Of a stretch of DNA of 64,000 nt, positions 44,180 to 57,149 are shown piece by piece. Positions within the stretch are counted from its first letter, which is position 1. Each line of letters opens with the position of its first letter. The notes beneath the pieces were generated by a model. The model ran no database searches. It was given only the letters and a program-made list of their open reading frames with translations, and had not been told where the DNA came from. The position numbers and the translations under genes were made by a program. This DNA is from Parachlamydiales bacterium (GTDB taxonomy: Bacteria > Chlamydiota > Chlamydiia > Chlamydiales > CALOCV01): the NCBI GenBank assembly GCA_942491955.1, contig CALOCV010000015.1, positions 47,762 through 111,761 of the forward strand. The letters are read 5' to 3'.

Positions 44180-44226
44180 TCGCTTGTGAGGGAAAAGCTT
44201 ATTTTGTTATAAGTACTGCCGTTTTT

Positions 44227-44299
44227 GCTAGCATAGCTCAATTGGTAGAGCACCCGACTTGTAATCGGACGGTTGTGGGTTCAAGTCCTACTGCCAGCA
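44227..44299 (+). tRNA. tRNA-Thr (TGT)
   Basis: Cloverleaf: D-arm gctc aattggta gagc, anticodon loop ctTGTaa, T-arm gtggg ttcaagt cctac. One A:C mismatch in the acceptor stem. Confidence 0.85.
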
Positions 44300-44306
44300 T
44301 TTTCTT

Positions 44307-44388
44307 GGGGGTGTCGCATAGTGGCAATTGCAAGGGACTGTAAATCCCTCGACTTCGGTCTTCGTCAGTTCGAGTCTGACCGCCCCCA
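44307..44388 (+). tRNA. tRNA-Tyr (GTA), class II with long variable arm
   Basis: Acceptor gggggtg/cgccccc, anticodon arm aggga ctGTAaa tccct, variable arm cgacttcggtcttcg, T-arm gtcag ttcgagt ctgac. Confidence 0.85.
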
Positions 44389-44524
44389 AACCTAGTTCTG
44401 AGTGGGAATTTTCTTCTTTACCCACTTTCTCTAAAATCCTCCAATTACGCAAATTTTACGCACTTGATTGCAGCAAACAGCAGCTATTTTCTGTTACTTT
44501 TCTTTCAGATCATTTTATTTCTTA

Positions 44525-45124
44525 GAACCTGTTTAAAATCTTTCTAATCCTGTATAAACAATTATTTTCCAAGACAATTGTAGGTATTTTATGCCCCATT
44601 GCTATCCTAGCGATATGGATCGTGAACAGTTTAACAAAATTAAACCTCTTCTGGAATCTGCAAGAAAAAAAACACGTCCTAGAGCGGTCGACTTATATGA
44701 TGTAATTTGTGGCATTTCATATGTTTGAAAAACCAGTTTACATATGGTCATCCTTGCTTTTGTCGTTTTATTCGTAAAACAGTTTTGAACGAGTTTTTAG
44801 AAAACAAACTACCACAGAGCCCACAGAGAACACAGAGGGAGGACATATAGATTGTTTAGTGCATCCAGAAATGTCTGAAGAAGTTGTAGAGGATCAGGTA
44901 ATTATAGAAATTAAATCTGTGAATGGAATAGCTCTAATACACGAAGCACAACGACTATCTTATTTAAAGCTCTATGGAACTTGTGCCCGAGGATTGCTGA
45001 TCAATTTTAATGTGAAACGATTGGTAGAAGGCATTCGTCGAATGAAAATATAACCCTCTCTCTGTGCTCTCTGTGGGCTCTGTGGTAGTTTTTATTGCTG
45101 AGATATGTCAACCAAGTTTCTTAA
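44525..45124 (+). mobile_element. IS variant left-end fragment (44525-44750) + GxxExxY module copy 3 (44756-45124)
   Basis: Collinear with 5965-6566. The variant orfA fragment MPHCYPSDMDREQFNKIKPLLESARKKTRPRAVDLYDVICGISYV* ends in a premature stop. Confidence 0.75.
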
Positions 45125-45174
45125 GAATCTGTTTAAAATCTTTCTAATCCTGTATAAAAATTGTTTTCAAAACT

Positions 45175-45516
45175 TTGGAGGCAATGATGGCTCACTCTTA
45201 TCCAAGCGATATTTCTCGAAAGCAATTTGACAAAATCAAACCTTTGCTTGAGTCTGTGCGAAAAAAAACACGCCCTAGAACCGTAGACCTTTTTGATATT
45301 TTTTGTGGAATTTTATATGTTTTAAAAAGTGGCTGTCAGTGGCGTATGTTGCCAAAAGAATATCCTAAATGGGAACTTTGCTATTACTATTTCCAGTTAT
45401 GGAAAGAAAGCGATGATAATTCAGAAAGCATCCTTGAGAAAGTTTTAAAAAAAAATGGTTGGAGAGGTCCGACAAAACAATGGTCGGAAAGAGAAAACCA
45501 GTTTTATAATAATTGA
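45175..45516 (+). CDS. IS5-family transposase orfA (HTH part)
   Basis: 113 aa. YPSDISRKQFDKIKPLLE...GCQWRMLPKEYPKW is typical of IS5/IS427-group InsA. Confidence 0.8.
   Translation: MEAMMAHSYPSDISRKQFDKIKPLLESVRKKTRPRTVDLFDIFCGILYVLKSGCQWRMLPKEYPKWELCYYYFQLWKESDDNSESILEKVLKKNGWRGPTKQWSERENQFYNN
45447..45455 (+). promoter_or_regulatory. Probable programmed -1 ribosomal frameshift site (A9) joining orfA and orfB
   Basis: The A-run lies in the orfA/orfB overlap. A -1 slip gives ...EKVLKKKMVGEVRQNNGRKEKTSFIIIDAQSVK. Confidence 0.55.
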
Positions 45517-45976
45517 TGCGCAAAGCGTTAAAAATACCGATACAGCTGAGAGTAAAGGGTATGATGCAGGAAAAAAAATTTCAGGGATAAAACGACACAT
45601 CGCTGTAGACACCCAAGGATTACCTCATGCAATTCATATAACTACAGCAAATATTACAGATAGGAAAGGAGCGCTAGAAGCATGTTCATTGAAGAAGAGT
45701 TTTTTATCTGAAGTAAAAAACGTTTTAGCTGATGGAGGATACTCTGGAGAACCATTTTCAGATGGTATTCAAGAGATATTGGGTTGTCCAGTAGAAATAG
45801 CCAAGAGAAATGAATTGCATACTTTTAAAGTGATTCCCAAAAGATGGGTTGTGGAACGTTCTTTTAGCTGGCTTGAAAAGTGTAGAAGATTATGGAAAAA
45901 CTGTGAAAGAAAGCTAAATACTAGCTTAACTATGGTAGTCTTAGCATTTGTAGTTCTTCTTTTAAAAAGATTTTAA
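45455..45976 (+). CDS. IS5-family transposase orfB (DDE domain)
   Basis: 173 aa. IIDAQSVKNTD, ADGGYSGEPF, RWVVERSFSWLEKCRRL. Confidence 0.85.
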   Translation: MVGEVRQNNGRKEKTSFIIIDAQSVKNTDTAESKGYDAGKKISGIKRHIAVDTQGLPHAIHITTANITDRKGALEACSLKKSFLSEVKNVLADGGYSGEPFSDGIQEILGCPVEIAKRNELHTFKVIPKRWVVERSFSWLEKCRRLWKNCERKLNTSLTMVVLAFVVLLLKRF

Positions 45977-46068
45977 ACAGGTTCTAAGGGACAAAACCTT
46001 TAAACGTAAGTCCTTTTTGTCTTTTAGGTCTCTCAGGTCCTTTTCGTCCCTTTGTCCCTTTTAGTACG

Positions 46069-46148
46069 ATGAAAAGCCTTTTCCGCCCTCCCAAGGTGTC
46101 TATCAAGTCTGCTTTCCTATTCGGAAAGCGGACATTATTTTCTCTATA
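46069..46148 (+). pseudogene. Degenerate 5' remnant of a four-helix-bundle-family gene with its upstream leader repeat
   Basis: DNA similarity of 45990-46148 to 54400-54560 (…ttttcgtcccttNNgtcccttttagtacgatgaaaa…ctatcaagtNtgctttcctat…). The remnant ends in a stop after 26 codons. Confidence 0.4.
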
Positions 46149-46360
46149 GAAAAATTCTGGACAAAAAAGAATATAGATAAGAGGATGTTGTTGATTTAAA
46201 TCCATAACAAGGAGACAGGCATGGAAGTTGGTGATTGCTCATACTCTGAGGTTTATTTTGAAAATTTAGGAGATAATGCAACGAAAGATGAGGATTATTC
46301 TTATAATCATGATCCAGTTTGTCACGTTGCAAAAACGATAACATTTGAGATCCTGAAAGG

Positions 46361-46996
46361 ATGTTTACTGTGCAGTATTTTGATGAACAGGGAAATATGA
46401 CTATTCGTAGTGGTGGTACTCGAGCTTGGAGATGTAATAATCCTGGAAATCTTAGAAAAAGCACTTATAGTACAGGCAAGAACAGAAGATCTATAGGCGT
46501 TGCGGGTTTCGGAGAGGATTTTTATCCTGTTTATCCTGATTATGAAACTGGTCATGAAGCTTTAGTTGTCATGCTAAGGGGTTCTGTTTATTCTCCTCTT
46601 ACATTGCGCGCAGCTATAAAAAGATATGACAATACAAACCCTAATTATATTAATGAGATTGTCAAAATCACAAAATTTGACCCAGAGAGGACTATTGAAT
46701 CTCTAAGTGACAAGGAATTTGAGATATTTTGGAAAGCAATAGAATTCGTAGAGAAATGGAAAGAGGGCACCGAAGATTTTATCGAGAAATGGATAATTTT
46801 AGGTGTCCACAAGAAACGAGGTGTCATTTTCGAATATCTAGTTCGCAAATCTCCAAAAGATATGTGGATTACAAAAGAACAAGCAATTCAATTTGCATTA
46901 GAAGGAAGGCTTTATGCTGTAATTGTCCATCTGAAAAATGGAACGAATTATCTCCGTCCTAAATATAGAGAAAAGCCGTTTGAAATCATTGTATGA
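46361..46996 (+). CDS. Hypothetical protein (NNPGNLR motif N-terminal region; DUF3892-like C-terminus, low confidence)
   Basis: 211-aa ORF, AT-rich. C-terminal pattern WITKEQAIQFALEGRLYAVIVHLKNGTNYLRP. Confidence 0.5.
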   Translation: MFTVQYFDEQGNMTIRSGGTRAWRCNNPGNLRKSTYSTGKNRRSIGVAGFGEDFYPVYPDYETGHEALVVMLRGSVYSPLTLRAAIKRYDNTNPNYINEIVKITKFDPERTIESLSDKEFEIFWKAIEFVEKWKEGTEDFIEKWIILGVHKKRGVIFEYLVRKSPKDMWITKEQAIQFALEGRLYAVIVHLKNGTNYLRPKYREKPFEIIV

Positions 46997-47010
46997 GGTG
47001 GAAGTAACCG

Positions 47011-47604
47011 ATGAAATTTAGATCTCTAATACTTTTTTCTGCTTCTATTATCTTTATAGGATGTGAAAACAAAAAAAATGATTTAAACTCTATAAAGAAA
47101 GAATTTTTAAATAAAATTTTATTGTCGGAGATAGAAGAAAGTCCTTTCAATATGCATTACAGTATGAAAACTGTTTTTTTCTCAAAAGATCTTGTTAGCC
47201 TTTTTGGTGAAATCAATGTCTATGATTGTATGCCTCATGGTTGGAAGTGTTACGAAGGAAAGACTTATATCAAAATAAATGGGGAATTCAGGGAAATCGC
47301 TTTGGAGGATCTTTTTACATCTAACAAGCAAAAAGAATTTTTGCGAAGCTATTGTGAAAATTGCTTAAAAAGAGATTCTATGACCTATTTTGGAGGAGAT
47401 AATCCTCTTAAAGAAAAACTCGCTTCTGAAGATATCCAAACTTTTGTTATTGATGAACACTCTCTAAGTATTATTTTCCAACCTTATGTTGCTGTCAGCA
47501 GTGCTGATAGTCCCTGTATTATAAAAATTCCCTTAGAGGATCTTAAAGAACATTGGGACTCTGGGAATATTTTGTTTCCCTTCCTGCAAGAATTTAGTAA
47601 ATGA
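47011..47604 (+). CDS. Lipoprotein, DUF3298/RsiV-like fold candidate
   Basis: Lipobox LFSASIIFIGC. The patterns LVSLFGEINVYDCMPHG...IALEDLF...LSIIFQPYVAVSSA resemble DUF3298. Confidence 0.65.
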   Translation: MKFRSLILFSASIIFIGCENKKNDLNSIKKEFLNKILLSEIEESPFNMHYSMKTVFFSKDLVSLFGEINVYDCMPHGWKCYEGKTYIKINGEFREIALEDLFTSNKQKEFLRSYCENCLKRDSMTYFGGDNPLKEKLASEDIQTFVIDEHSLSIIFQPYVAVSSADSPCIIKIPLEDLKEHWDSGNILFPFLQEFSK

Positions 47605-47678
47605 TATCTAGTTCTAGAAAAGTTGTCTAAGCATTCATGGAACTGGAGTCTTTTGAGTAACATGATGGAAGTGAGGAA

Positions 47679-47957
47679 TTAGTCAGCATCTCCTCCGTCA
47701 CCCCCATTGCCTCCGATGCCATAGACGCTTCCACCTCCATTACCACCGTGGCCGCCATGTTGCCCATTTTTGCCGTCCTCTCCGTCTTCTCCATTCTCTC
47801 CATCTTCAAGATAGCTTGAAGAGCCATGTTCTCCGTCTTTTGTCCTGGAGGGTTGTTCAACATCATTGGAAATTCTTCTCGTTCCATAGGCATTTAATGA
47901 AGAAAATGTAATGAGCATACATCCAATGAGCATACAAAATAAATCAGTCATTTTCAT
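47679..47957 (-). CDS. Secreted Gly-rich repeat protein 3 (acidic: GEDGEDG...GGHGGNGGG...GGNGGDGGDAD)
   Basis: 92 aa. Signal-peptide-like N-terminus ending SSLNA|Y. RBS-like aaaggaa 10 nt upstream of the ATG. Confidence 0.65.
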   Translation of the reverse strand: MKMTDLFCMLIGCMLITFSSLNAYGTRRISNDVEQPSRTKDGEHGSSSYLEDGENGEDGEDGKNGQHGGHGGNGGGSVYGIGGNGGDGGDAD

Positions 47958-47981
47958 TTGTTAAAATTCCTTTTAATAGGG

Positions 47982-48299
47982 TTACTTGCTTTTACCGTCT
48001 TGTCCGTCACTGCCATTGCCAGCGGGTCCTCTGCCTCCCATGCCGCCTAAGCCCCCGCCTTGCGAGCCATCTCCACCGTTTCCTCCATTGCCACCCCTGC
48101 CATATTGGCTATCTCCTCCATTACCGCCGTGGCCGCCACGCCCAGAATTGCTGTTCCCGCCATTCCCTCCGTTACCACCATCCTCATGAATGCTATTTCC
48201 CCCATGGCCACCATTACCTCCATCTCTTGCATGCAATGCTATTGTTGCGTTCATGAAAACAACCAAAGAAAGCAAAATTTTTAGAGTCATATTTTTCAT
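47982..48299 (-). CDS. Secreted Gly-Asn-His repeat protein 2
   Basis: 105 aa. Signal peptide MKNMTLKILLSLVVFMNATIALHA, then GGNGGHGGNS...GGNGGNGGNSNSGRGGHGGNGGDSQYGRGGNGGNGGDG. The start overlaps the upstream gene's stop (ATGA). Confidence 0.7.
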   Translation of the reverse strand: MKNMTLKILLSLVVFMNATIALHARDGGNGGHGGNSIHEDGGNGGNGGNSNSGRGGHGGNGGDSQYGRGGNGGNGGDGSQGGGLGGMGGRGPAGNGSDGQDGKSK

Positions 48300-48526
48300 C
48301 CCGCATCTCCTCCATGACCGCCATTACCACCGCTAACTCCTCCATGTCCGCCGTTGCCACCATGTCCTCCATTGCCAGAACCACTATTCCCGCCATTACC
48401 ACCATTGCCTGCGCTTCCAGGAGAATGACCTCCATGACCACCATTCCCTCCATTAGCAGCTTGTAAATCTGCTGCTAATAACAACGCCAATAAAGAAAAG
48501 ATTAACAAAATTTTTCTCGATTTCAT
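48296..48526 (-). CDS. Secreted Gly-Asn-His repeat protein 1
   Basis: 76 aa. Signal peptide MKSRKILLIFSLLALLLAADLQA, then ANGGNGGHGGHSPGSAGNGGNGGNSGSGNGGHGGNGGHGGVSGGNGGHGGDAG. RBS aagggag 7 nt upstream. Confidence 0.7.
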   Translation of the reverse strand: MKSRKILLIFSLLALLLAADLQAANGGNGGHGGHSPGSAGNGGNGGNSGSGNGGHGGNGGHGGVSGGNGGHGGDAG

Positions 48527-48593
48527 GAGCTACTCCCTTTTATAGCACAAGTGAACGGACGGTAGCATTTTTAGGAATTGTTTTCTATATTTC

Positions 48594-49064
48594 ATGAATT
48601 CATCAATCCGGATGAAATTGCGTGAACAAATAACCTCATTCACTTCTATTTTTGTAGTCGTTGTAGCTCTTTTGGGCAGTGTCGTTTATAGTTTGATTCC
48701 CATATCAAATCAATTTTTTCTTGCTGTTGGAGTCTTTTCTTTTACGATGGGCCTTTTTAACCTAATGCAAATCTCCACAGGGGTTCTGATCCAGAATCAA
48801 TTGCAGGACGAAAACAGAATGCTTACTACAAAGCAAGTTTCATTTTACTCTCGAATAGGAATGATTACTTCCCTTATTGTTCTCCATTGGTTGTTTGCAT
48901 GGAATTGGGGGATCATTGATATCTATGGGTTATACGGGAGGATAGGCGTTTGTATTTTTGGTTTGATTCTAGGATGGATGGGGATAAAAAAATGGCTGGG
49001 CAAACGACATGCGCTTGTTAATGAGCGAAAGGCAACCTCACTGAATGTAGGAGAATCGAGATGA
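48594..49064 (+). CDS. Small 4-TM membrane protein, unknown function
   Basis: 156 aa with four hydrophobic helices. Its stop overlaps the start of the next gene (ATGA). Confidence 0.6.
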   Translation: MNSSIRMKLREQITSFTSIFVVVVALLGSVVYSLIPISNQFFLAVGVFSFTMGLFNLMQISTGVLIQNQLQDENRMLTTKQVSFYSRIGMITSLIVLHWLFAWNWGIIDIYGLYGRIGVCIFGLILGWMGIKKWLGKRHALVNERKATSLNVGESR

Positions 49065-50065
49065 CAACAGAAGGAGAGAGGCTCTTTCCTGAAAAATTAC
49101 GACCGGGTGATGAGGTCCGTGTAATAGCACCTTCGAGGAGTATGGGGATTATTTCTCATTCTGTCCGTTCGCTGGCGAAACAGCGTTTAGAGGATATGGG
49201 GCTTATGGTGAGTTTTTCAAAGCATTGCGAGGAAAGGGACAGTCTTGACTCTTCTGCCATTTCGTCGCGGTTGGAGGATCTACACGAAGCATTTGCAGAC
49301 AAGAATGTCAAAGGCGTTTTGACTACGATTGGTGGATTCAACTCCATCCATTTGCTTAAGGGAATTGACTACCGGTTAATCCACGAGAATCCGAAAATCC
49401 TGTGTGGCTACTCGGATATTACAACGTTGCAGAATGCGCTCTTTGCAAAAATAAATCTTGTTACTTACTCGGGTCCGCATTTTTCGACTTTCGGTTGCCT
49501 TAAGGGGATGGACTATGTGGTCGAATATTTTAGAAAGTGTCTTCTCTTGGAAGAGAAGGAGATCACGCTGCTCCCTTCCGACTTATGGAGTGATGATGAG
49601 CAATGGTATCTCGACCAGGAAAAACGTACGTTTTTTCCGAATGGTGGTTATTTTCCACTTAACACAGGGACTGCTTCTGGAATGGTGATAGGAGGTAATA
49701 TTGATTCGTTCATGGTTTTACAGGGGACAGAGTTCATGCCTTCTCTTAAGGGGACAATTTTGTTCTTAGAAGATAACTTTCCCCTGACTGCGGAAGTGCT
49801 TGACAGACAACTCCATTCGCTTGTTTTGCAAAAGGAATTTGCCTATGTCAGAGGGATTGTCTTTGGGCGTTTTCAAAAAGCGTCAAAGATTACACCAAAT
49901 CTATTGCGAGAAATTGTGCAAAAAGAGGAAGAGCTGCAAGGTATTCCCATCATCGGAGGAGTTGACTTTGGTCATACCCTTCCCATCTTCACATATCCTA
50001 TCGGAGGAGATGTGAAGTTAAAAGTGACTTCAGAAGATATTGCAATCACTTTAACAAAAAAATAA
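49061..50065 (+). CDS. S66-family LD-carboxypeptidase (LdcA / microcin C7 immunity MccF-like)
   Basis: 334 aa. LRPGDEVRVIAPS, nucleophile region ILCGYSDITTLQNAL, and C-terminal GGVDFGHTLPIFTYPIGG. Confidence 0.85.
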   Translation: MTTEGERLFPEKLRPGDEVRVIAPSRSMGIISHSVRSLAKQRLEDMGLMVSFSKHCEERDSLDSSAISSRLEDLHEAFADKNVKGVLTTIGGFNSIHLLKGIDYRLIHENPKILCGYSDITTLQNALFAKINLVTYSGPHFSTFGCLKGMDYVVEYFRKCLLLEEKEITLLPSDLWSDDEQWYLDQEKRTFFPNGGYFPLNTGTASGMVIGGNIDSFMVLQGTEFMPSLKGTILFLEDNFPLTAEVLDRQLHSLVLQKEFAYVRGIVFGRFQKASKITPNLLREIVQKEEELQGIPIIGGVDFGHTLPIFTYPIGGDVKLKVTSEDIAITLTKK

Positions 50066-50114
50066 GGCGAGTCCCTTTGCTGAGTATGCATAATTATTCA
50101 TTAGATTTTGATTA

Positions 50115-50375
50115 GGAGTGCCTATTGAGACGAGCAAATTGAAACGTCCGCGCAAAAGGAAGACCTAGGAGTACTTTGGATATGTCGGCTGAGAAATTAC
50201 GCAAATTTTATGTACTTGGCCACAAACAAGTGGAGCAAAAGGGCACAATCCAGCATAATAGTTTGTTTGAAACACTTTGATTTTGCTGTGATTCTGTGTT
50301 CTTGCTTGCTAGGGATAGCAGAAAGAGATCCGACAGTAAATTCTTGGTCTTGGTTGGTTTGAGGCCTACAGAGGA
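50115..50375 (+). repeat. att-like repeat block R1: tail of small gene + ttacgcaaattttatgtacttg motif + degenerate tRNA-Tyr 3' fragment
   Basis: Collinear with 54095-54365. Ends in ccgacagtaaattcttggtcttggttggtttgagg, compared with tRNA ggactgtaaatccctcgacttcggtcttcgtcagttcgag. Confidence 0.6.
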
Positions 50376-50496
50376 AAAGGATTGGGTTCTGGATTTCTAC
50401 TTGGTTTGTTCTATAACAAATAGTTGACATCAATGATTAAACAGTTTTCCTTAGTAAAAGGCCTTACAGAGTTTGCCTTACCGTTCTTAAAATGAA

Positions 50497-51897
50497 ATGA
50501 ATCAACAAAAAAAAGCAGCTTTCATGGTTTGTGGCACCCACAGTGGTGTAGGTAAGACAACAGCGAGTTTCGTTATTTTATCTCTTCTTAAAGAAAAAAG
50601 ATATACAGTCCAGCCATTCAAACAAGGACCCGATTTTATCGATCCAGGTTATCATCAGTTTGTTACAGGGAAAAATTCGATAAACTTGGATTTTTGGATG
50701 ATGAGGCGAAAAGAAATCATCAACAGCTTTCACGAGGCTATGCAAGATGCTGAAATAGGAGTTGTTGAGGGAATGGGAGCTATCTTCGATGGTCATAACG
50801 GAACATATGAAGGGTGTGGAGCTGATTTGGCCTCTTTACTTTCGATTTCGATGGTACTTGTGGTCGATGTTTCTGGGATGACACGAAGTGTTAATGCACT
50901 TTTACAAGGATTTATCGACTATCTTCCTTCTCTTTCCATTGTAGGTATTCTTTTTAATCGTGTAGGAAGCAAAAAACACTATGAAATGATTCTTGATACT
51001 TTATCTCCTCGATTTCGTTCGTTATCTATCGGTTATCTCCTCAATTTTCATTCTGCAAATATTCCTGAAAGACATCTGGGTTTGCTTACTATTGAAGAAA
51101 ACCAGCAAATGCAAGAAATCATGAAACCATATCTCGAGCTCGCAAGAAGCACTCTTGCACTAGATTCTCTTCTTCAAAAAATTCTTCCTTTAAAAAATGC
51201 GATCATCAAAAGAAAGGCGAGCTCTGTAAAAAAAAATCATATACGTATAGGAATTGCTCGAGACAAGGCCTTTTGTTTTTACTATCAAAAAAATTTAGAA
51301 ATTTTGGAGAGAAGTGGAGCCGCTCTTGTTGATTTTAGTCCTATAAATGACACAACTCTTCCAGATGATATTGATGCACTCTATTTAGGAGGGGGGTATC
51401 CAGAAATATTTGCCAAAGAATTAGAAGAAAACCAGACCTTAAAATCGCAAATTGTAAAAAGGGCTGATGCAGGAATGCCCATTTATGCTGAGTGTGGTGG
51501 ATTTATTTTCCTTTGTAAGACACTCATGTTAGATGATTCGACGAGTTATTTGATGGCAGGAGTGTTTCCTTATACGATTCGATGGGACAAAACATTTCTT
51601 GCGATTAAATATGTGAGAGTGAGAACAACACGCGGAACGATACTTGGTCCTAAGAATACTTTCGTCCAAGGCCAAGAATTTCACCAGACACGCGTAGAGA
51701 AGCCAACCGCAGAATATTGTGGCTCTTATGAAGTGACGAGCTCTACTCAGGAACATTTTTTTGAGGGATATTGTACAAAAAATGTGTTAGGCGGCTATAT
51801 TCACCTCTACTTTCCTTCCAATCCGAAGATAGTAGAAAATTTTATAAAAAAAGGTGCTCTTTATCGAAGACGAAGGCATGCTTTATCATTTTCTTAA
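50497..51897 (+). CDS. CbiA/CobB-family ATP-dependent amidotransferase (cobyrinic acid a,c-diamide synthase-like)
   Basis: 466 aa. P-loop GTHSGVGKTT, ERHLGL, ARDKAFCFYY, GGGYPE, and GATase Cys in AECGGFIF. Confidence 0.85.
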   Translation: MNQQKKAAFMVCGTHSGVGKTTASFVILSLLKEKRYTVQPFKQGPDFIDPGYHQFVTGKNSINLDFWMMRRKEIINSFHEAMQDAEIGVVEGMGAIFDGHNGTYEGCGADLASLLSISMVLVVDVSGMTRSVNALLQGFIDYLPSLSIVGILFNRVGSKKHYEMILDTLSPRFRSLSIGYLLNFHSANIPERHLGLLTIEENQQMQEIMKPYLELARSTLALDSLLQKILPLKNAIIKRKASSVKKNHIRIGIARDKAFCFYYQKNLEILERSGAALVDFSPINDTTLPDDIDALYLGGGYPEIFAKELEENQTLKSQIVKRADAGMPIYAECGGFIFLCKTLMLDDSTSYLMAGVFPYTIRWDKTFLAIKYVRVRTTRGTILGPKNTFVQGQEFHQTRVEKPTAEYCGSYEVTSSTQEHFFEGYCTKNVLGGYIHLYFPSNPKIVENFIKKGALYRRRRHALSFS

Positions 51898-53023
51898 TCG
51901 AAAAGTCATTTTTTTATTCGTTTTTTGTTTTCCAGTACAGGATGTTTGGAGCATTGAAGAAAAAGTAAAGGTTGCTGTTGTTCATTTTAAACCAGACCAT
52001 AGAGAGGTTGAAGCCAATATCAACCGATTAGTACATTTAGCGGAAGAAGCTGGGAATAATGGTGCTAAAATTGTTGTGTTTCCAGAGCTTGCAACATCAG
52101 GTTATTCCTATTTTAACAGGAATCAGATACGCGAAGTCGCTGAAGAATTTCCAGGGGAGACGACAAAAAGTCTTGGCCGGGTAGCAAAAAAATATGGATT
52201 ATACATTGTTGTCGGAGTTCCAGAGTATAGCAGTTTGACAAATCTTTTTTACAATTCTTGCGCTCTTATTGATCCCTATGGAGAGATTGTTGGTATATCT
52301 CGAAAACACTCTCATTTAATGGAATCTTGTTGGTGTGCTTCAGGAAATGGACATGTTCCTATTTTTGACACAATATATGGAAAAATAGCCATTTTGATTT
52401 GTGCAGATTTACATTTCTCTGATCTCGCAATCCAAGTATTTCGTGAAGATGTCCTGTTTTTGATTGCACCGACAAATGCAGGGGTGAGCACAGATTTGTT
52501 GAAGGCTAGAGCTGTTGAAGGTCGCTGTCATCTTCTTCTTTCTAATCGCTATGGAAATGAAAAAGAAGCTTTTTCAAGTATAGAGAAATCAGAACAGTTC
52601 AATGAGGACACTTTAACGATAATTCCTCCTTTTCCGTATGATTTTCAAGATGGGAAAAGTGTGATTGTGGATATGCAAGGTCAGATACAAGTCATGATCG
52701 AAGATCCCTATGATTCTATTGGTTATTGTGAACTTTTTTTTAAGGATAGGCCAAAAGAGACTGTAGTGAGAAGATCTGACTTGGATGTTATTTTAGAAAA
52801 ATCAATTATTGTCAATTCAAGGCGGTTCCAAAAGGAAGAAAAATCTTCTGAAAACTATGTTAAAGGAGGAATGGAAGCAGATTCTGATGGCAATGTCAAG
52901 GCATATGGAGAATTGGGAAGAACAACCACAGACAAAGATTCTAGTGACACGATAACGCTGTCAGGAGAGATTGATTCAGACGGAAATTATGCTGTGCGGG
53001 GAGAATATAAAAGTACTTGGTAA
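51878..53023 (+). CDS. Nitrilase-superfamily carbon-nitrogen hydrolase with N-terminal signal/anchor and ~100-aa C-terminal extension
   Basis: Glu-Lys-Cys triad contexts VFPELATSGY, ISRKHSHLM, ILICADLHF. The start was moved to the internal MLYHFLNRKVIFLFVFCF (track start 51854). Confidence 0.8.
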   Translation: MLYHFLNRKVIFLFVFCFPVQDVWSIEEKVKVAVVHFKPDHREVEANINRLVHLAEEAGNNGAKIVVFPELATSGYSYFNRNQIREVAEEFPGETTKSLGRVAKKYGLYIVVGVPEYSSLTNLFYNSCALIDPYGEIVGISRKHSHLMESCWCASGNGHVPIFDTIYGKIAILICADLHFSDLAIQVFREDVLFLIAPTNAGVSTDLLKARAVEGRCHLLLSNRYGNEKEAFSSIEKSEQFNEDTLTIIPPFPYDFQDGKSVIVDMQGQIQVMIEDPYDSIGYCELFFKDRPKETVVRRSDLDVILEKSIIVNSRRFQKEEKSSENYVKGGMEADSDGNVKAYGELGRTTTDKDSSDTITLSGEIDSDGNYAVRGEYKSTW

Positions 53024-53024
53024 T

Positions 53025-53891
53025 ATGTATCGATTGATTGCTGCTCTGCTTGTTGTATTCGTTCTATGGATCCATTCAAATCTTAACGGAATAACAAAAA
53101 TATCATTTAATGTTGATAAAGCCGGTATGCCTTTTTTTGAAGGTTGTCTTGAAGGTAAAACATTTCCCGTATGGTTTGACTTTGGATCCGCATCTTCTCA
53201 TTTCAGGTCTGAAAAGGTGTCAGGTAATGTTAAACAAAAACTTACATCCGAAGCACGACTTGTAAATAATATTACGGGAGAAAAAGAAACTCATACCGAA
53301 TGGAAAATACAAGGATTGCAAATCAATGGATATACTATTCCGTTTATTATTGCAATAGAACAAACAGAAGATTGTCATTATTTTTCTGTGAATTCGGAAA
53401 ATGATATTTCACAACTTTCTGGTACAGAGCCTTATCCACCTATTGTATTAGGTAATCCTGTTTTTGCTCAAACTCCTTTTCTTCTTGATCTTATGAACAA
53501 AGAAATGATTATTTATGAAGAAAATGATTCATATGTTGAAATGATTCAGGGATGGGTGGAACTTCCTTTAAAAAAAGAAAGAGGAATGTATGTTGTTGTC
53601 TTAAAGAATGAAGATACGCCTTTATTACTTTGCGTAGATACGGGTTCTACTGTGAATATGTTTTTTAATAAAGAGGAGAAGAGTAATAAGAACTTTCTTC
53701 TCAAAAAGACGGATATTCATATGTTGAAATACCAGGATTTTCTATTGGACGTCGGATTTTTTTATCAAATGTCAAGAGAGGATGATTCTGCGATCAGCGG
53801 AGTTCTTGGAGCTCCTTTTTTTAAAAACAGACCCGTATTGATTGATTGTAAGAAGGAAAAAATGTTTTTCCCATTAACAAGTCAATCTTGA
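53025..53891 (+). CDS. Secreted protein with two retropepsin-like half-domains (DFGS and DTGS motifs); putative pseudo-dimeric aspartic protease
   Basis: Signal peptide MYRLIAALLVVFVLWIHS. Motifs FPVWFDFGSASSHF and LLLCVDTGSTVNMFF sit about 160 aa apart. The start was moved to the ATG 2 nt after the upstream stop. Confidence 0.45.
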   Translation: MYRLIAALLVVFVLWIHSNLNGITKISFNVDKAGMPFFEGCLEGKTFPVWFDFGSASSHFRSEKVSGNVKQKLTSEARLVNNITGEKETHTEWKIQGLQINGYTIPFIIAIEQTEDCHYFSVNSENDISQLSGTEPYPPIVLGNPVFAQTPFLLDLMNKEMIIYEENDSYVEMIQGWVELPLKKERGMYVVVLKNEDTPLLLCVDTGSTVNMFFNKEEKSNKNFLLKKTDIHMLKYQDFLLDVGFFYQMSREDDSAISGVLGAPFFKNRPVLIDCKKEKMFFPLTSQS

Positions 53892-53919
53892 GATCTTGCA
53901 ATGAATATTTGGAAGCAGA

Positions 53920-54147
53920 TTGAGAGAGGTTATTATGGCGGATAAAGAAAAGCAAGACATTCATAAGATTCTATTGGCTGCCCACAAACGAGGCGTGCAG
54001 CAGGCGATTGATCTCTCGATCCGCACGGGCGTGCCGCTTGTCATAGAAAAGAATGGGAAGATTATTGAAATACCACCAAAGTACAAATACATTCGGGTGC
54101 CCATTGAGGCGGACAAGCCTAAGCGTCCGCACAAAAGGAAGACCTAG
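53920..54147 (+). CDS. Small protein with basic tail (KPKRPHKRKT) at the distal end of an island module
   Basis: 75-aa ORF. Its 3' end is duplicated as a remnant at about 50115-50170 (PIETSKLKRPRKRKT*). Confidence 0.5.
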   Translation: MREVIMADKEKQDIHKILLAAHKRGVQQAIDLSIRTGVPLVIEKNGKIIEIPPKYKYIRVPIEADKPKRPHKRKT

Positions 54148-54365
54148 GAATTTCTTGGATATGTCGGCTGAGAAATTTACGCAAATTTTACGCACTTGGC
54201 CACAAACAAGTGGAGCAAAAGGGCACAATTCAGCACAATAGAGTCTTTCGAAAAGGATTGATTTTGCTGTGCTTATGTGCTCTTGTTTGCTGCGGTCTAT
54301 AGAAAGAGAACCGACTGTAAATCCCTCGACTTCGGTCTTCGTTGGTTCGAGTCCAATCGCCCCCA
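54095..54365 (+). repeat. att-like repeat block R2 ending in a 53-nt near-perfect copy of the tRNA-Tyr 3' part
   Basis: 54313-54365 gactgtaaatccctcgacttcggtcttcgttggttcgagtccaatcgccccca, compared with tRNA 44336-44388. The T-stem differences are compensatory (gtcag/ctgac -> gttgg/ccaat). Confidence 0.75.
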
Positions 54366-54479
54366 AAAAGGACAAGGGACATAAAGGACCTAAGGGACCT
54401 AAAAAAAGAGACCAAAGGGACAATGTTTCAGTTTGGTGTCTCTTTGGTCCTTTTCGTCCCTTAAGTCCCTTTTAGTACG

Positions 54480-55203
54480 ATGAAAAAATCCTTCTTACCA
54501 CCCCATGGTGGCTATCAAAGTTTGCTTTCCTATCAAAAAGCTGAAATCGTTTACGACGCTACCGTTTATACCAATTCCGGTAAGAAAATGCATAAAGTGG
54601 ATTCAGGATTTTTTTGCGAAATTTGTTTTGGAGATCGTAGCAAACTCTTGTGAGTTTGCAAGATAGAAAAACAGATTGCGCAAAGAAAGATGAAGATCAA
54701 TTTGTGCACTTTCTTACCGGAATTGGTATTACTTCACGCAAAGGTTTTATCGAAAAGGGGATCGCACGATGGATCAAATGGTTCAGGCGGCGCGTTCGGG
54801 TAAGCAAAACATTGCCGAAGCCAGTCAAGCATCGGGAACATCGAAAGAGATGGAGATTAAGTTGACGAATGTCGCTCGAGCAAGTCAAGAAGAGTTATTG
54901 TTAGATTATCGGGATTTTCTTCGGATTCATCAACTCGAAGAGTGGGCAAAAGATCACCCCCTTACAAGTCGGTTGCGTATTTTATGTAAATCTCCTCAAC
55001 CCACCTACACAACGTTTCAAAAAGGGATAGAACATTCCGAACCAGTCATTTCCGCCAATGTCATCATCGGTTTAATCAAAGTAACCAATTATCTTCTTGA
55101 CCAGCAAATTCGTCGGTTAGAGGAAGACTTTTTGCGCGAAGGAGGCTTGCGCGAACGGATGACCAAAGCCAGACTTGCTGTTCGCAATCAAAGAAAACGC
55201 TAG
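54480..55203 (+). pseudogene. Four-helix-bundle family protein (with suffix-type C-terminal domain) interrupted by a MITE-1 insertion
   Basis: MKKSFLPPHGGYQSLLSYQKAEIVYDATVY | 162-bp MITE | (Y)FTQRFYRKGDRTMDQMVQAARSGKQNIAEASQASGTSKEMEIKLTNVARASQEELLLDYRDFL... The flanks are in frame, and the MITE contains stop codons. Confidence 0.8.
54568..54729 (+). mobile_element. MITE-1 copy D, inserted inside a coding sequence
   Basis: Full-length, with both TIRs. Differs from copy A at only a few positions. Confidence 0.85.
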
Positions 55204-55345
55204 TCAACATCTCCTCCATTACCCCCATTGCCACCCCTGCCATATTGGCTATCTCCTCGATTACCGCCGTGGCCGCCATGCCCAGAATTGCTGTTCCCAT
55301 CATTCCCTCCATTAGCAGCTTGTAAATCTGCTGCTAATAACAACG
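55200..55345 (-). pseudogene. Truncated chimeric paralogue of the Gly-Asn-His repeat genes
   Basis: Minus-strand reading LLAADLQAANGGNDGNSNSGHGGHGGNRGDSQYGRGGNGGNGGDVD*. It joins protein-1-like signal-peptide end to a protein-2-like core. An in-frame stop lies immediately upstream, so there is no full signal peptide. Confidence 0.6.
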
Positions 55346-55437
55346 TCAATATCGGATGGCAGGTGCAAGATTATTTGTATCTGTCCTTCCAGGAGATGAG
55401 GACGAAATAGAAGAGCTTTACAAGAGGTGGTATTAAT

Positions 55438-56439
55438 TCAAGTCTCTTTGCTTAGTGGGAGATTCTCTAGTTCAATAATATCGGCCTTATCCGCTTCCAA
55501 TTTTTCTAGGTGCTTTCTATTATTGTTAAATTCTGTGTAACGTTCCAATGCTAGTTGTTCGGCTATCTGTGCTGAAATTTGTCCTGAATGATTCAAAATT
55601 GCTCTATCATTAAATGAAAGAAAGGCGTCAAGTTTATCAGCCCATTCGTTCATGGTCATAGTTTTACGTCTTTTAGCTTGATCTTCAGCATAGTCTAGAT
55701 ACATCGTAACAATTCTATTAAGTTCATTAATTTCTTCTTGAGAAAGATAGTTTTTAGCAATCGTTATATCGCCTTGACGAACTCGACTTCCCTTCCAGCT
55801 GGTAAGACCCATATTTGGTAGCTGTGGATTTGCACGATGACAAATTAGTTCGGCGGCAGTATGTCCAGTCAACGCCCAAAACATCTTATTTTGGACCTTT
55901 TTAAAGAAAAAATGTGCTTGACCGCTCTTAGGGTCGTAGTCTACAGCGGTTGTATAGATATCTTTTACTTTTTGATAGAATCGCTTTTCAGAAGCCCGAA
56001 TTTCACGAATTCGCTCAAGCAATTCATCAAAGTAATCCCAACTTCCAGGCTCTTTAAGACGAACATCGTCTAGTATGAAGCCTTTAACTAGATATTCTTG
56101 CAAATGAGATGTTGCCCATCTGCGAAACTGGGTGCCTCGTGCAGAGCGAACTCTGTATCCAATTGCCAAAATGATGCTAAGCTCATAGAGCTTTACCTCT
56201 CTTTGTATGTTCCTATTTCCCTCCTTTTGAACTAGTAAGTAATCCTTACTAGTTGAGTTGGGATCTGCCTCATTTTCTTCGTAAATTCTTTGTATATGAA
56301 GAGTTATGTTCTGGGGAGTTGTTTGAAACAGTTCGGCAATTTCTGAGCGAGTTAACCAAACTGTTCCTTCTTCGGCTTTCAATTGAACAGAAGTCTTTCC
56401 GTCATCAGTTGTGTAAAGGATAATTTCGCCGTTAGACAT
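55438..56439 (-). CDS. RhuM-family protein
   Basis: 333 aa. ILYTTDDGKTSVQL...VWLTRSEIAELFQTTPQNITLHI...AIGYRVRSARGTQFRRWAT is characteristic of the RhuM family. Confidence 0.85.
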   Translation of the reverse strand: MSNGEIILYTTDDGKTSVQLKAEEGTVWLTRSEIAELFQTTPQNITLHIQRIYEENEADPNSTSKDYLLVQKEGNRNIQREVKLYELSIILAIGYRVRSARGTQFRRWATSHLQEYLVKGFILDDVRLKEPGSWDYFDELLERIREIRASEKRFYQKVKDIYTTAVDYDPKSGQAHFFFKKVQNKMFWALTGHTAAELICHRANPQLPNMGLTSWKGSRVRQGDITIAKNYLSQEEINELNRIVTMYLDYAEDQAKRRKTMTMNEWADKLDAFLSFNDRAILNHSGQISAQIAEQLALERYTEFNNNRKHLEKLEADKADIIELENLPLSKET

Positions 56440-56639
56440 TGACTGCTTCTTTTGGATAAATTTTAGAAATTATCATACTTGCGATAACTAAATTTTCCCA
56501 GTCAAAAGTTCTGAATCCGTCCAACCGCCCTCAATAAAAGAACAAAGGGACAATGTCTTTCAGTGAGGTGTCTAATAGGGTCCCCAAAAATTAGACAACC
56601 CATTTTGCCTCTTAGGTCCTTTTTGTCGTTTTCGTCCCT

Positions 56640-56729
56640 TTAATACGATGAAAAGTCTTTTCCCTCCTTTAACACTTCGATTACTGCTTTTAATTTGAAT
56701 TCGGGTGTGTGCCGTTTTCTTTGTGACAT
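56640..56729 (-). pseudogene. IS3-family transposase orfA N-terminal remnant
   Basis: Minus-strand MSQRKRHTPEFKLKAVIEVLKEGKDFSSY*, a typical IS3 InsA start truncated after 29 aa. Confidence 0.45.
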
Positions 56730-56912
56730 TTTTGCCTCCACATTTTTGAGAGGCTATAAGCTTAGCAAGTGGTCCTATTTTGGGGGACCATTACACTATT
56801 TTAAACAGCTATTGATAAGGAGGTTTAGCGGAGTTTGTCATCAAGAGATTTCCAATCAAAAGTTCTGACATCGTCCGGTCTCTCCCAAAAAGGAAAAAGT
56901 GCGTAAAGCCAG

Positions 56913-57149
56913 TTACTCAGCAAGTCGTTTCAAAGCGCCTCCATATTTCTTATTGACTCTTTTTAAAGAATTTGAAAATTGCTTTTTTCCCACCTTACTC
57001 TTTACTGGCGTGACAACAATGGTGACACCATCTGGTGTCGAAATCTGAAGTAAGGTTTGCTCATCGATTCCTAAAAGTTCTAGAACTGCCTTTTCAATCA
57101 CTAGGGCATAGCTATTACCATGCTTCGTCAGTTTTTTAGTAATCGTCAT
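56913..57149 (-). CDS. AbrB/MazE/SpoVT-family antitoxin-like protein (no intact partner toxin adjacent)
   Basis: 78 aa. KLTKHGNSYALVIEKAVLELLGIDEQT swapped-hairpin motif. Confidence 0.7.
   Translation of the reverse strand: MTITKKLTKHGNSYALVIEKAVLELLGIDEQTLLQISTPDGVTIVVTPVKSKVGKKQFSNSLKRVNKKYGGALKRLAE

Follow-up and report, generated by a model that had tools for sequence, protein, structure and literature searches.

The 64-kb stretch of DNA analysed here (the window) comes from an environmental chlamydia and carries, at 44390-56891, what is probably a decayed composite genomic island that lacks an integrase and formed as mobile DNA integrated site-specifically into the 3' part of a tRNA-Tyr gene, with a core of 53-55 nt. 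A preliminary description of the locus had proposed a tRNA-Tyr integration hotspot with four copies of the tRNA 3' end (R1 to R4 below), left by successive site-specific integrations that were followed by decay. Two integrations are documented, at R1 and R2, not four. R1 and R2 are junctions between a P arm of an integrative element and a displaced tRNA core, and successive integration stands for these two; it does not stand for R3 and R4 as further events. The features that carry this reading are listed below, where P and P' are the two arms of the element's attachment site (attP), and attL and attR are the left and right attachment sites of the integrated element.

44226-44300, plus strand: tRNA-Thr(TGT), left neighbour of tRNA-Tyr (ARAGORN; Rfam 65.6 bits)
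44306-44389, plus strand: tRNA-Tyr(GTA), the intact target gene at one island end (ARAGORN; Rfam 54.3 bits)
44336-44390, plus strand: attL core, the tRNA-Tyr 3' part from the anticodon loop to the 3' end (repeat search)
44390-44512, plus strand: P' arm remnant of the last integrated element, TTACGCA doublet at 44445-44463 (alignment with L073, L078, L005 and L001)
50118-50330, plus strand: P arm copy 1 with the tail of a small basic open reading frame (ORF), doublet at 50197-50215 with 2 mismatches (repeat search, alignment)
50331-50375, plus strand: R1, decayed attR-type core copy with two deletions (7 nt and 1 nt), acceptor end missing, T stem of the R2 allele
54148-54312, plus strand: P arm copy 2, perfect doublet at 54177-54195 (alignment; blastn)
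54313-54367, plus strand: R2, intact core copy (attR) of another tRNA-Tyr allele, 91% identical over 55 nt without gaps

The match of R2 to 44336-44390 begins exactly at GACTGTAAAT in the anticodon loop. The five differences between R2 and the tRNA-Tyr gene all fall in the T stem and keep its pairing (C-G to T-A, A-T to G-C and G-C to G-T). The T arm of R2, GTTGG...CCAAT, is the majority type among relatives and is also present in a full-length tRNA-Tyr gene of a metagenome locus (L167, ARAGORN; 53 of 54 nt identical). This supports the earlier view, drawn from the compensatory T-stem changes, that R2 comes from another functional tRNA-Tyr allele. The T-arm allele of the window's own tRNA-Tyr, GTCAG/CTGAC, is also present in two relatives (L009, L076). 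In the formal alignment against controls that had been proposed, with R1, R3 and R4 graded against background tiles of the window, R2 was clear, R1 ranked in the top 1% of tiles with the tRNA as reference and in the top 0.2% with R2, and R3 and R4 did not rise above background when compared with the tRNA alone (5% and 27% of tiles). R1 is secure because the ~200-bp block in front of it runs on into R1. The claim of a degraded copy at R1 thus holds given this continuity and the R2-type T stem, and is weak for R1 standing alone. Decayed P-arm/core junctions resembling R1 were found in two relatives (L031, L030).

The sequence in front of the two cores is shared, as the preliminary description had noted. 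The block at 50118-50351 matched 54097-54332 at 74-89% identity (~234 bp), continuing into the tRNA-like part, and contains the 3' end of the small basic ORF, 16 codons long (VPIETSKLKRPRKRKT vs VPIEADKPKRPHKRKT, each up to its stop). A scan of the 64 kb for the motif TTACGCAAATTTTACGCAC, with up to 3 mismatches allowed, gave exactly 3 matches, at 44445, 50197 and 54177, where 0.03 were expected; a repeat search found a 24-nt repeat three times, at 44443, 50195 and 54175. The first of the window's doublets lies 56 nt past the end of tRNA-Tyr, in line with the motif reported downstream of the intact tRNA, and the P' arm is truncated at +124 by the end of an insertion sequence (IS). The spacing from doublet to core is 136 nt for R2 and 134 nt for R1.

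The same geometry was found in relatives. We compared 200 related loci (L001-L200), comprising genome loci and metagenome loci (L081-L200). In L073, L078, L005 and the second L001 junction, the sequence following tRNA-Tyr aligned with 44390-44512 and had its doublet at +56 to +65. A second, inverted doublet follows in relatives ~200 nt past the first (+245 to +285), ahead of the integrase gene. The ~135 nt preceding the displaced core in L001, L016, L032, L034, L065 and L040 aligned with both window blocks at 75% mean column identity in an alignment covering 8 genomes, and the aligned P arms begin with the doublet. P arm copy 2 was matched by blastn to the P arms of L141, L142, L177, L191 and others. 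Among the genome loci (1.28 Mb), 22 of 22 motif matches were located past tRNA-Tyr. The metagenome scan yielded >120 contigs with the exact 19-mer doublet. It stood 133-141 nt (mostly 135-136; 135±1) before a displaced core in 45 junctions, whose cores were those of tRNA-Tyr (18), tRNA-Leu-TAA (8), tRNA-Met(CAT) (8) and tmRNA (11). The doublet was also found beside full tRNA-Phe, tRNA-Met and tmRNA genes in metagenome loci, the tmRNA genes being confirmed. With the same doublet and ~135-nt P arm at several targets, one arm architecture serves several target genes. Other integrase subfamilies carry doublets of their own in equivalent places with ~11-bp spacing: CCCCAC-N5-CCCCAC in L013 and L066, and TGGGACA-type doublets in L054, L038 and L067. 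As expected of an attP, a repeated non-core motif occurs in both arms at conserved positions. The positions in both arms, including the inverted copy, lend good support to the doublets as putative arm-type integrase sites, the role suggested earlier for a 22-bp motif. Judged from these alignments, we take the ~200-bp block to be the P arm of the element and not an incidental flank. Two small islands without integrase (L032 and L065, 1.1-1.5 kb) have a duplication that runs 70-100 nt past the tRNA 3' end, which fits tandem remnants having similar P' ends.

The region to the left of the island is conserved and the region to its right is variable. The order TtcA-like / SEC-C / tRNA-Thr / tRNA-Tyr was kept in 65 of the 80 related loci checked for the Thr-Tyr pair. 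The DNA beyond tRNA-Tyr was different in all 56 informative relatives (those with at least 1 kb beyond tRNA-Tyr), with the left neighbourhood constant. Signs of integration, that is, a second ~53-nt piece of tRNA-Tyr, a tRNA-adjacent tyrosine integrase or the arm motif, were present in 23 of these 56 loci. A second copy of the 3' ~53 nt of the locus' own tRNA-Tyr was found in 11 genome loci, 0.9-9.2 kb downstream and starting at the same base. Most of these copies begin at GACTGTAAAT and reach the 3' end, with perfect repeats of 52-54 nt in four; the left core boundary in the anticodon loop is identical in the window and the 11 relatives. In eight loci a tyrosine integrase or its remnants lie directly past tRNA-Tyr, with recombinase genes 117-423 nt away in L054, L013, L066, L073 and L006 and remnants in L078, L005 and L018. 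Nine contigs break <800 nt past tRNA-Tyr. Collectively, these comparisons support tRNA-Tyr as a real integration site in environmental chlamydiae, and the hotspot of the preliminary description is confirmed. One further locus (L050) has, ~0.9 kb past tRNA-Tyr, a degraded full-length second tRNA-Tyr-like copy that includes the 5' half and represents a duplicated pseudo-tRNA, not an attachment-site repeat.

The proposed comparison of the interval from tRNA-Tyr to the OsmC and carbonic anhydrase genes showed it to be differently filled in 56 of 56 informative relatives, with no true empty site available among them. No relative had a counterpart past tRNA-Tyr of OsmC, of carbonic anhydrase or of any ORF up to 64 kb, and the native downstream sequence conserved in Parachlamydiaceae (TCCTTTTGGACAC...) scored at background in the window. 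The right border of the island lies somewhere between 56891 and ~57330. The antitoxin gene near this end has a G+C content at third codon positions (GC3) of 0.34, so the island may reach ~57300.

Intact members of the element family are ~10 kb long and were found in Parachlamydiaceae HS-T3 (L201) and on a metagenome contig (L140). The HS-T3 element (9.7 kb, with a perfect 53-nt core repeat) starts with tRNA-Tyr, a doublet at +56, an inverted doublet, the integrase and two unknown ORFs, and continues with a DUF927 protein, a DnaG-like protein, a HepT/MNT pair, a doublet and, 136 nt on, the core copy. L140 is a 10.1-kb member with an integrase, DUF3987 and a CHC2/Toprim primase. The order in the family is tRNA-Tyr, P' arm (TTACGCA-N4-TTACGCA doublet at +56 and inverted doublet), tyrosine integrase, replication module (primase and DUF927/DUF3987), cargo, ~135-nt P arm and displaced core. 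No capsid, terminase or tail genes were found in the Pfam-scanned ORFs of the window, in the intact L140 or in the gene table of L201. A Logan contig (L202, SRR29904085, 9678 nt) has almost exactly the length of the HS-T3 element, starts just past the core and ends within the core; either the assembly broke at the repeat or the contig represents an excised circle.

The integrase family has >4,900 homologues at E <= 1e-40, annotated merely as "integrase". Residues 1-56 are strongly conserved, with 13 of them invariant in 44 homologues, and in the structural model the N terminus forms a beta-hairpin and helices before the core-binding/catalytic body (predicted local distance difference test, pLDDT, 44-69). 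Foldseek matched the model to full-length lambda Int, a match that was not specific to the N terminus. The modelled N terminus is compatible, at low confidence, with an arm-binding domain. Together, these results largely show that environmental chlamydiae have a very large superfamily of self-replicating, ~10-kb integrative elements, recognisable by the TTACGCA doublet and by a P arm of fixed 135-nt length. They show to the same extent that this superfamily has swapped core specificity among tRNA-Tyr, -Leu, -Met, -Phe and tmRNA with its arm architecture unchanged.

The integrase and backbone of the family are gone from the window. A profile built from five tRNA-Tyr-adjacent integrases found nothing in the 64 kb, the L140 proteins (integrase and backbone, the same backbone being common to L073 and L078) had no match there, and a Pfam scan of the window ORFs revealed no recombinase. 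These negatives agree with what had been seen by eye, as does the place of the IS copies, since a full IS5-family copy occupies the place that the integrase gene has in relatives. The remaining attL consists of the tRNA and a partial P' arm, and attR of a perfect-doublet P arm and R2, an arrangement like that of a cis-mobilizable element (CIME). Integrase-less islands such as this one might have kept their perfect arms and undecayed outer core because they are cargo hitchhikers, still excised and moved by sibling integrases, rather than dead remnants; we offer this tentatively and think it unlikely.

We propose the following history for the locus. At least two related elements, with P arms ~80% identical, would have integrated in tandem. 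As the rightmost full core, R2 should be the host's original tRNA 3' end, and the GTCAG/CTGAC allele in the present tRNA would have been brought by an element. An IS5-family insertion at +124 and then a deletion would have stripped the left element of its integrase and backbone, and a deletion starting inside R1 would have taken the left end of module 2 (the right element). A Gly/Asn-rich gene fragment, extra leaders of a four-helix-bundle (4HB) gene and R3/R4 may reflect later local duplication and rearrangement. The doublets are predicted to be bound by the conserved N-terminal ~56 residues of the family integrases, and an array without an integrase in cis would be frozen unless a sibling element provided one.

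Several observations weigh against this history or parts of it. Decay has gone much further in R1 than in R2, yet R1 is not the older copy under any order of events; the difference may stem from collateral damage of the adjacent deletion, from an incoming core that was already degenerate, or from R2 having stayed in use. A P' arm is missing from modules 2 and 3. The composition of TM156 and the LD-carboxypeptidase gene is core-like (GC3 0.38-0.44). Residues 28-56 of the integrase were modelled with pLDDT <50, and a Pfam search of the integrase N terminus with E up to 10 found no arm-binding family. Exact look-ups of OsmC and RhuM gave no match. The best match of the TtcA-like PP-loop protein in 185,579 species genomes and 5.8 billion proteins was 69% identical, and the nearest relative at this distance leaves no true empty site for comparison.

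A different history would be the single integration of a composite that already bore an internal P-arm/core junction, with one decayed and one functional element. Junctions of P arm, core, P' arm and integrase without a full tRNA occur in L141, L177 and L103, and L001 has the same without an integrase match, so tandems able to move as units exist. A review considers the transfer of whole composites not excludable in other systems (PMC5704250). The P arms of the window are only ~80% identical and its modules differ in composition, which would argue against one composite and is equally expected under two events. The evidence in the window does not distinguish the two histories; we consider a single composite integration rather improbable.

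R3 and R4 bear on the number of events and are as follows.

56519-56537, plus strand: R3, remnant of ~16-19 nt from the 3' acceptor end of tRNA-Tyr, joined to the third 4HB leader copy at 56538-56680 (junction comparison)
56849-56891, plus strand: R4, local duplicate of the junction at R3, made up of the end of the RhuM upstream region, the acceptor remnant and ~20 nt from the leader's start (repeat search)

In both, ~16 nt similar to the acceptor 3' end remain and are succeeded by the leader that also follows R2, as would be the case for scars of two more independent integrations (four events in total). In a junction comparison over 2842 tiles, with a query joining the last 16 nt of R2 to the 4HB leader start, both ranked with the best of the window; the R3 junction scored 20, equalled by 7 of the 2842 tiles, all self or other leader copies. 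However, neither is preceded by a P arm, and their scores against the tRNA alone were at background. The sequence on their 5' side (TTCCCAGTCAAAAGTTCT, TTTTCC(C/T)AGTCAAAAGTTCT) is the conserved upstream region of RhuM, according to locus L159, so R3 is only a ~16-19-nt remnant. We therefore rejected R3 and R4 as T-arm copies, and the ~30-nt T-arm/acceptor remnants described earlier reduce to a ~16-nt acceptor end. R3 and R4 share indels and 19 nt of RhuM upstream sequence and are copies of each other (score 24; shuffle maximum 16), so R4 is a local duplicate with no independent scar. Four independent integrations are thus improbable as well, and of the four claimed tRNA copies, R1 and R2 stand.

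It is also very unlikely that local segmental duplication or homologous recombination, with no site-specific recombinase, produced the block and core copies. Duplications within the island are real, as seen in the Gly/Asn-rich fragment (91-96% identity), R3/R4 and the three 4HB leaders. Nevertheless, the same block, 135-nt spacing and core boundary surround unrelated cargo in dozens of other genomes, contradicting a restriction of P arms to this genome's lineage. Moreover, the core copy matches the own tRNA-Tyr in each genome, and the cargo between the two window copies is unrelated. A structured small RNA gene made of the ~135-nt block and the tRNA-like end, which the high conservation of the block (75% mean column identity) over distant genomes might suggest, is scarcely credible and was rejected, as Rfam (E <= 1) matched only the two tRNAs and one antisense tRNA-Thr well below gathering score, RNAalifold gave -12 kcal/mol with a covariation term of -0.44, with clear compensatory changes in the T arm and few others mixed with broken pairs, and the same block stands ahead of pieces of four different genes.

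Arm-type sites are a feature of heterobivalent integrases (lambda Int, L5 Int, Tn916/Tn1549 Int). The arms described here resemble those of lambda, L5 and Tn916 in having short P and P' repeats, direct and inverted, at fixed distances from the core, and the integrase has an extra N-terminal region. They differ in the TTACGCA doublet itself, its 11-bp phasing and an N-terminal domain unknown to Pfam, and the sites are putative. Textbook cases of integration into tRNA genes are mycobacteriophage L5 in tRNA-Gly and HP1 in tRNA-Leu. Genomic islands formed in tRNA and tmRNA genes by tyrosine integrases have been compiled in the Islander catalogue (PMC4383910). As in such islands, the target is regenerated by element DNA, the opposite end is marked by the displaced 3' fragment, the core begins in the anticodon loop, the integrase gene of intact members is tRNA-adjacent, and the arm repeats are distinct from the core. 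Unlike typical tRNA islands, the window has no integrase or backbone, and the family, which is found in environmental chlamydiae, uses one arm architecture for at least four targets. It has a primase + DUF927/DUF3987 module, and no capsid or conjugation genes were seen.

CIMEs and tandem accretion are known from ICESt1/ICESt3-type elements of streptococci (PMC5704250). As in CIMEs, integration genes were lost, attL and attR were kept, and related elements were stacked at one site by site-specific recombination. The ICESt1/ICESt3 type differs in using the 3' end of a protein gene or other tRNAs as its target, in its Firmicutes hosts and in its known conjugative partners, whereas the window has one decayed internal site (R1). 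Within the Parachlamydiaceae, tRNA-adjacent islands like this one have been reported as Pam100G at tRNA-Gly of Protochlamydia amoebophila UWE25 (100 kb, 17-bp repeats, F-like transfer system; PMC548262) and as PnaK_GI2, "directly downstream of tRNA-Thr" in Protochlamydia naegleriophila (PMC5010888). PnaK_GI2 may lie at the same Thr-Tyr pair. The passages of PMC548262 and PMC5010888 found by term searches, and the abstracts listed, do not mention the 53-nt tRNA-Tyr core, the arm motifs or the integrase family. In the literature on chlamydiae, we found no paper that joins tRNA-Tyr and an integrase, nor any account of the element family and its arms. The locus itself follows an ordinary, known pattern, a tRNA-gene island with tandem accretion and CIME-like decay; the element family that it revealed is apparently undescribed.

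The integration history accounts for ~12.5 kb of odd content, made up of IS copies, orphan enzymes, RhuM, a lone antitoxin and fragments, and it implies that the 3' half of the present tRNA-Tyr is probably of foreign origin. The family offers a precise attachment site and arms of conserved geometry, together with its cognate integrases. An integrase with attP and its host site (attB) at a conserved tRNA could become an integration vector for these intracellular bacteria, for which tools are scarce. The family could also be used as a marker of gene flow among amoeba symbionts.

The remaining features of the island are listed below.

44513-44740, plus strand: truncated IS5-family copy, left inverted repeat and start of orfA (75-89% identical to the full copy)
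44801-45096, plus strand: GxxExxY / PDDEXK_3 mini-cassette, 64-aa ORF (44859-45053) between 42-nt inverted repeats (PF13366; TIGR04256)
45120-45996, plus strand: full IS5-family copy, DUF4096 orfA and DDE_Tnp_1 orfB overlapping in different frames (repeat search, Pfam)
45997-46170, plus strand: remnant of the 4HB leader and gene start, copy 1 (repeat search, alignment)
46361-50065, no single strand assigned: module 1 cargo, with unk211, a DUF3298-like gene, three Gly/Asn-rich signal-peptide genes (minus strand), a membrane protein and LD-carboxypeptidase (Pfam)
50497-53891, plus strand: module 2 cargo, with a CobB/CobQ-like amidotransferase, CN hydrolase and an unknown 306-aa ORF (unk306) (Pfam)
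53935-54147, plus strand: small basic protein gene, 70 aa from ATG, recurring as cargo and not as element backbone
54367-55203, plus strand: 4HB cassette, hairpin leader 54367-54478 and 4HB gene 54480-55203 (TIGR04258, TIGR02436)
55204-55351, minus strand: chimeric Gly/Asn-rich gene fragment (91-96% identical to 48068-48492, 7 kb away)
55438-56439, minus strand: RhuM-family gene, recurrent island cargo (Pfam, 3.4e-112)
56640-56729, minus strand: fragment of an IS3-like orfA N-terminus (MSQRKRHTPEFKLKAVIEVLKEG; translation, assigned by eye)
56913-57149, minus strand: orphan AbrB/MazE-type (doc-partner) antitoxin gene with no toxin gene (Pfam/NCBIfam)

Pfam and NCBIfam agree with the cargo named in the preliminary description (IS elements, orphan enzymes, RhuM, an antitoxin and fragments), and several further ORFs matched no family. 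Its statement that the cargo is more AT-rich than the flanks applies to most of the cargo, which is foreign by GC3, and fails for TM156 and LD-carboxypeptidase. Values of 0.24-0.31 were obtained for the IS, unk211, DUF3298-like, CobB-like, CN hydrolase, unk306 and RhuM genes (module 2 cargo, 0.25-0.29), compared to 0.40-0.50 for the flanking genes. Homologues of unk211 and the DUF3298-like gene lie past tRNA-Tyr in L016 and L039, and RhuM homologues lie past tRNA-Tyr or near P arms in L040, L055, L058 and L159. The small basic protein was considered as an excisionase or backbone gene and rejected, since it had two homologues in the 200 loci, neither adjacent to an arm, and no family match.

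The three tandem signal-peptide genes at 47627-48526 (minus strand) encode Gly/Asn/His-rich proteins with GGNGG repeats and no family match, and the fragment at 55204-55351 is a recent duplication within the island. The 4HB gene belongs to the 23S-rRNA-intervening-sequence protein family and has a GGGAC-rich hairpin ahead of it; the leader folds at -46.1 kcal/mol (z -4.06). The gene is split by a ~160-bp insert (54568-54729) with 32-nt inverted-repeat ends that are 91% complementary, like a miniature inverted-repeat element. The leader and gene start occur three times in the window (45997-46170, 54367-55203 and 56538-56680), and the cassette lies directly past a core copy both in the window and in L032. 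An intact 4HB homologue with a like hairpin was found in L004 (19600-20233, reverse-complemented to the window orientation), distant from any tRNA piece, and on this ground the hairpin leader was rejected as a second type of P' arm. The leader and gene together look like a small hairpin-bounded cassette. The GxxExxY cassette, a second small hairpin-bounded cassette, has CACAGAG-rich inverted repeats and sits between the truncated and full IS5-family copies. At the right end of the island, R4 is located where the toxin gene of the antitoxin would be expected.

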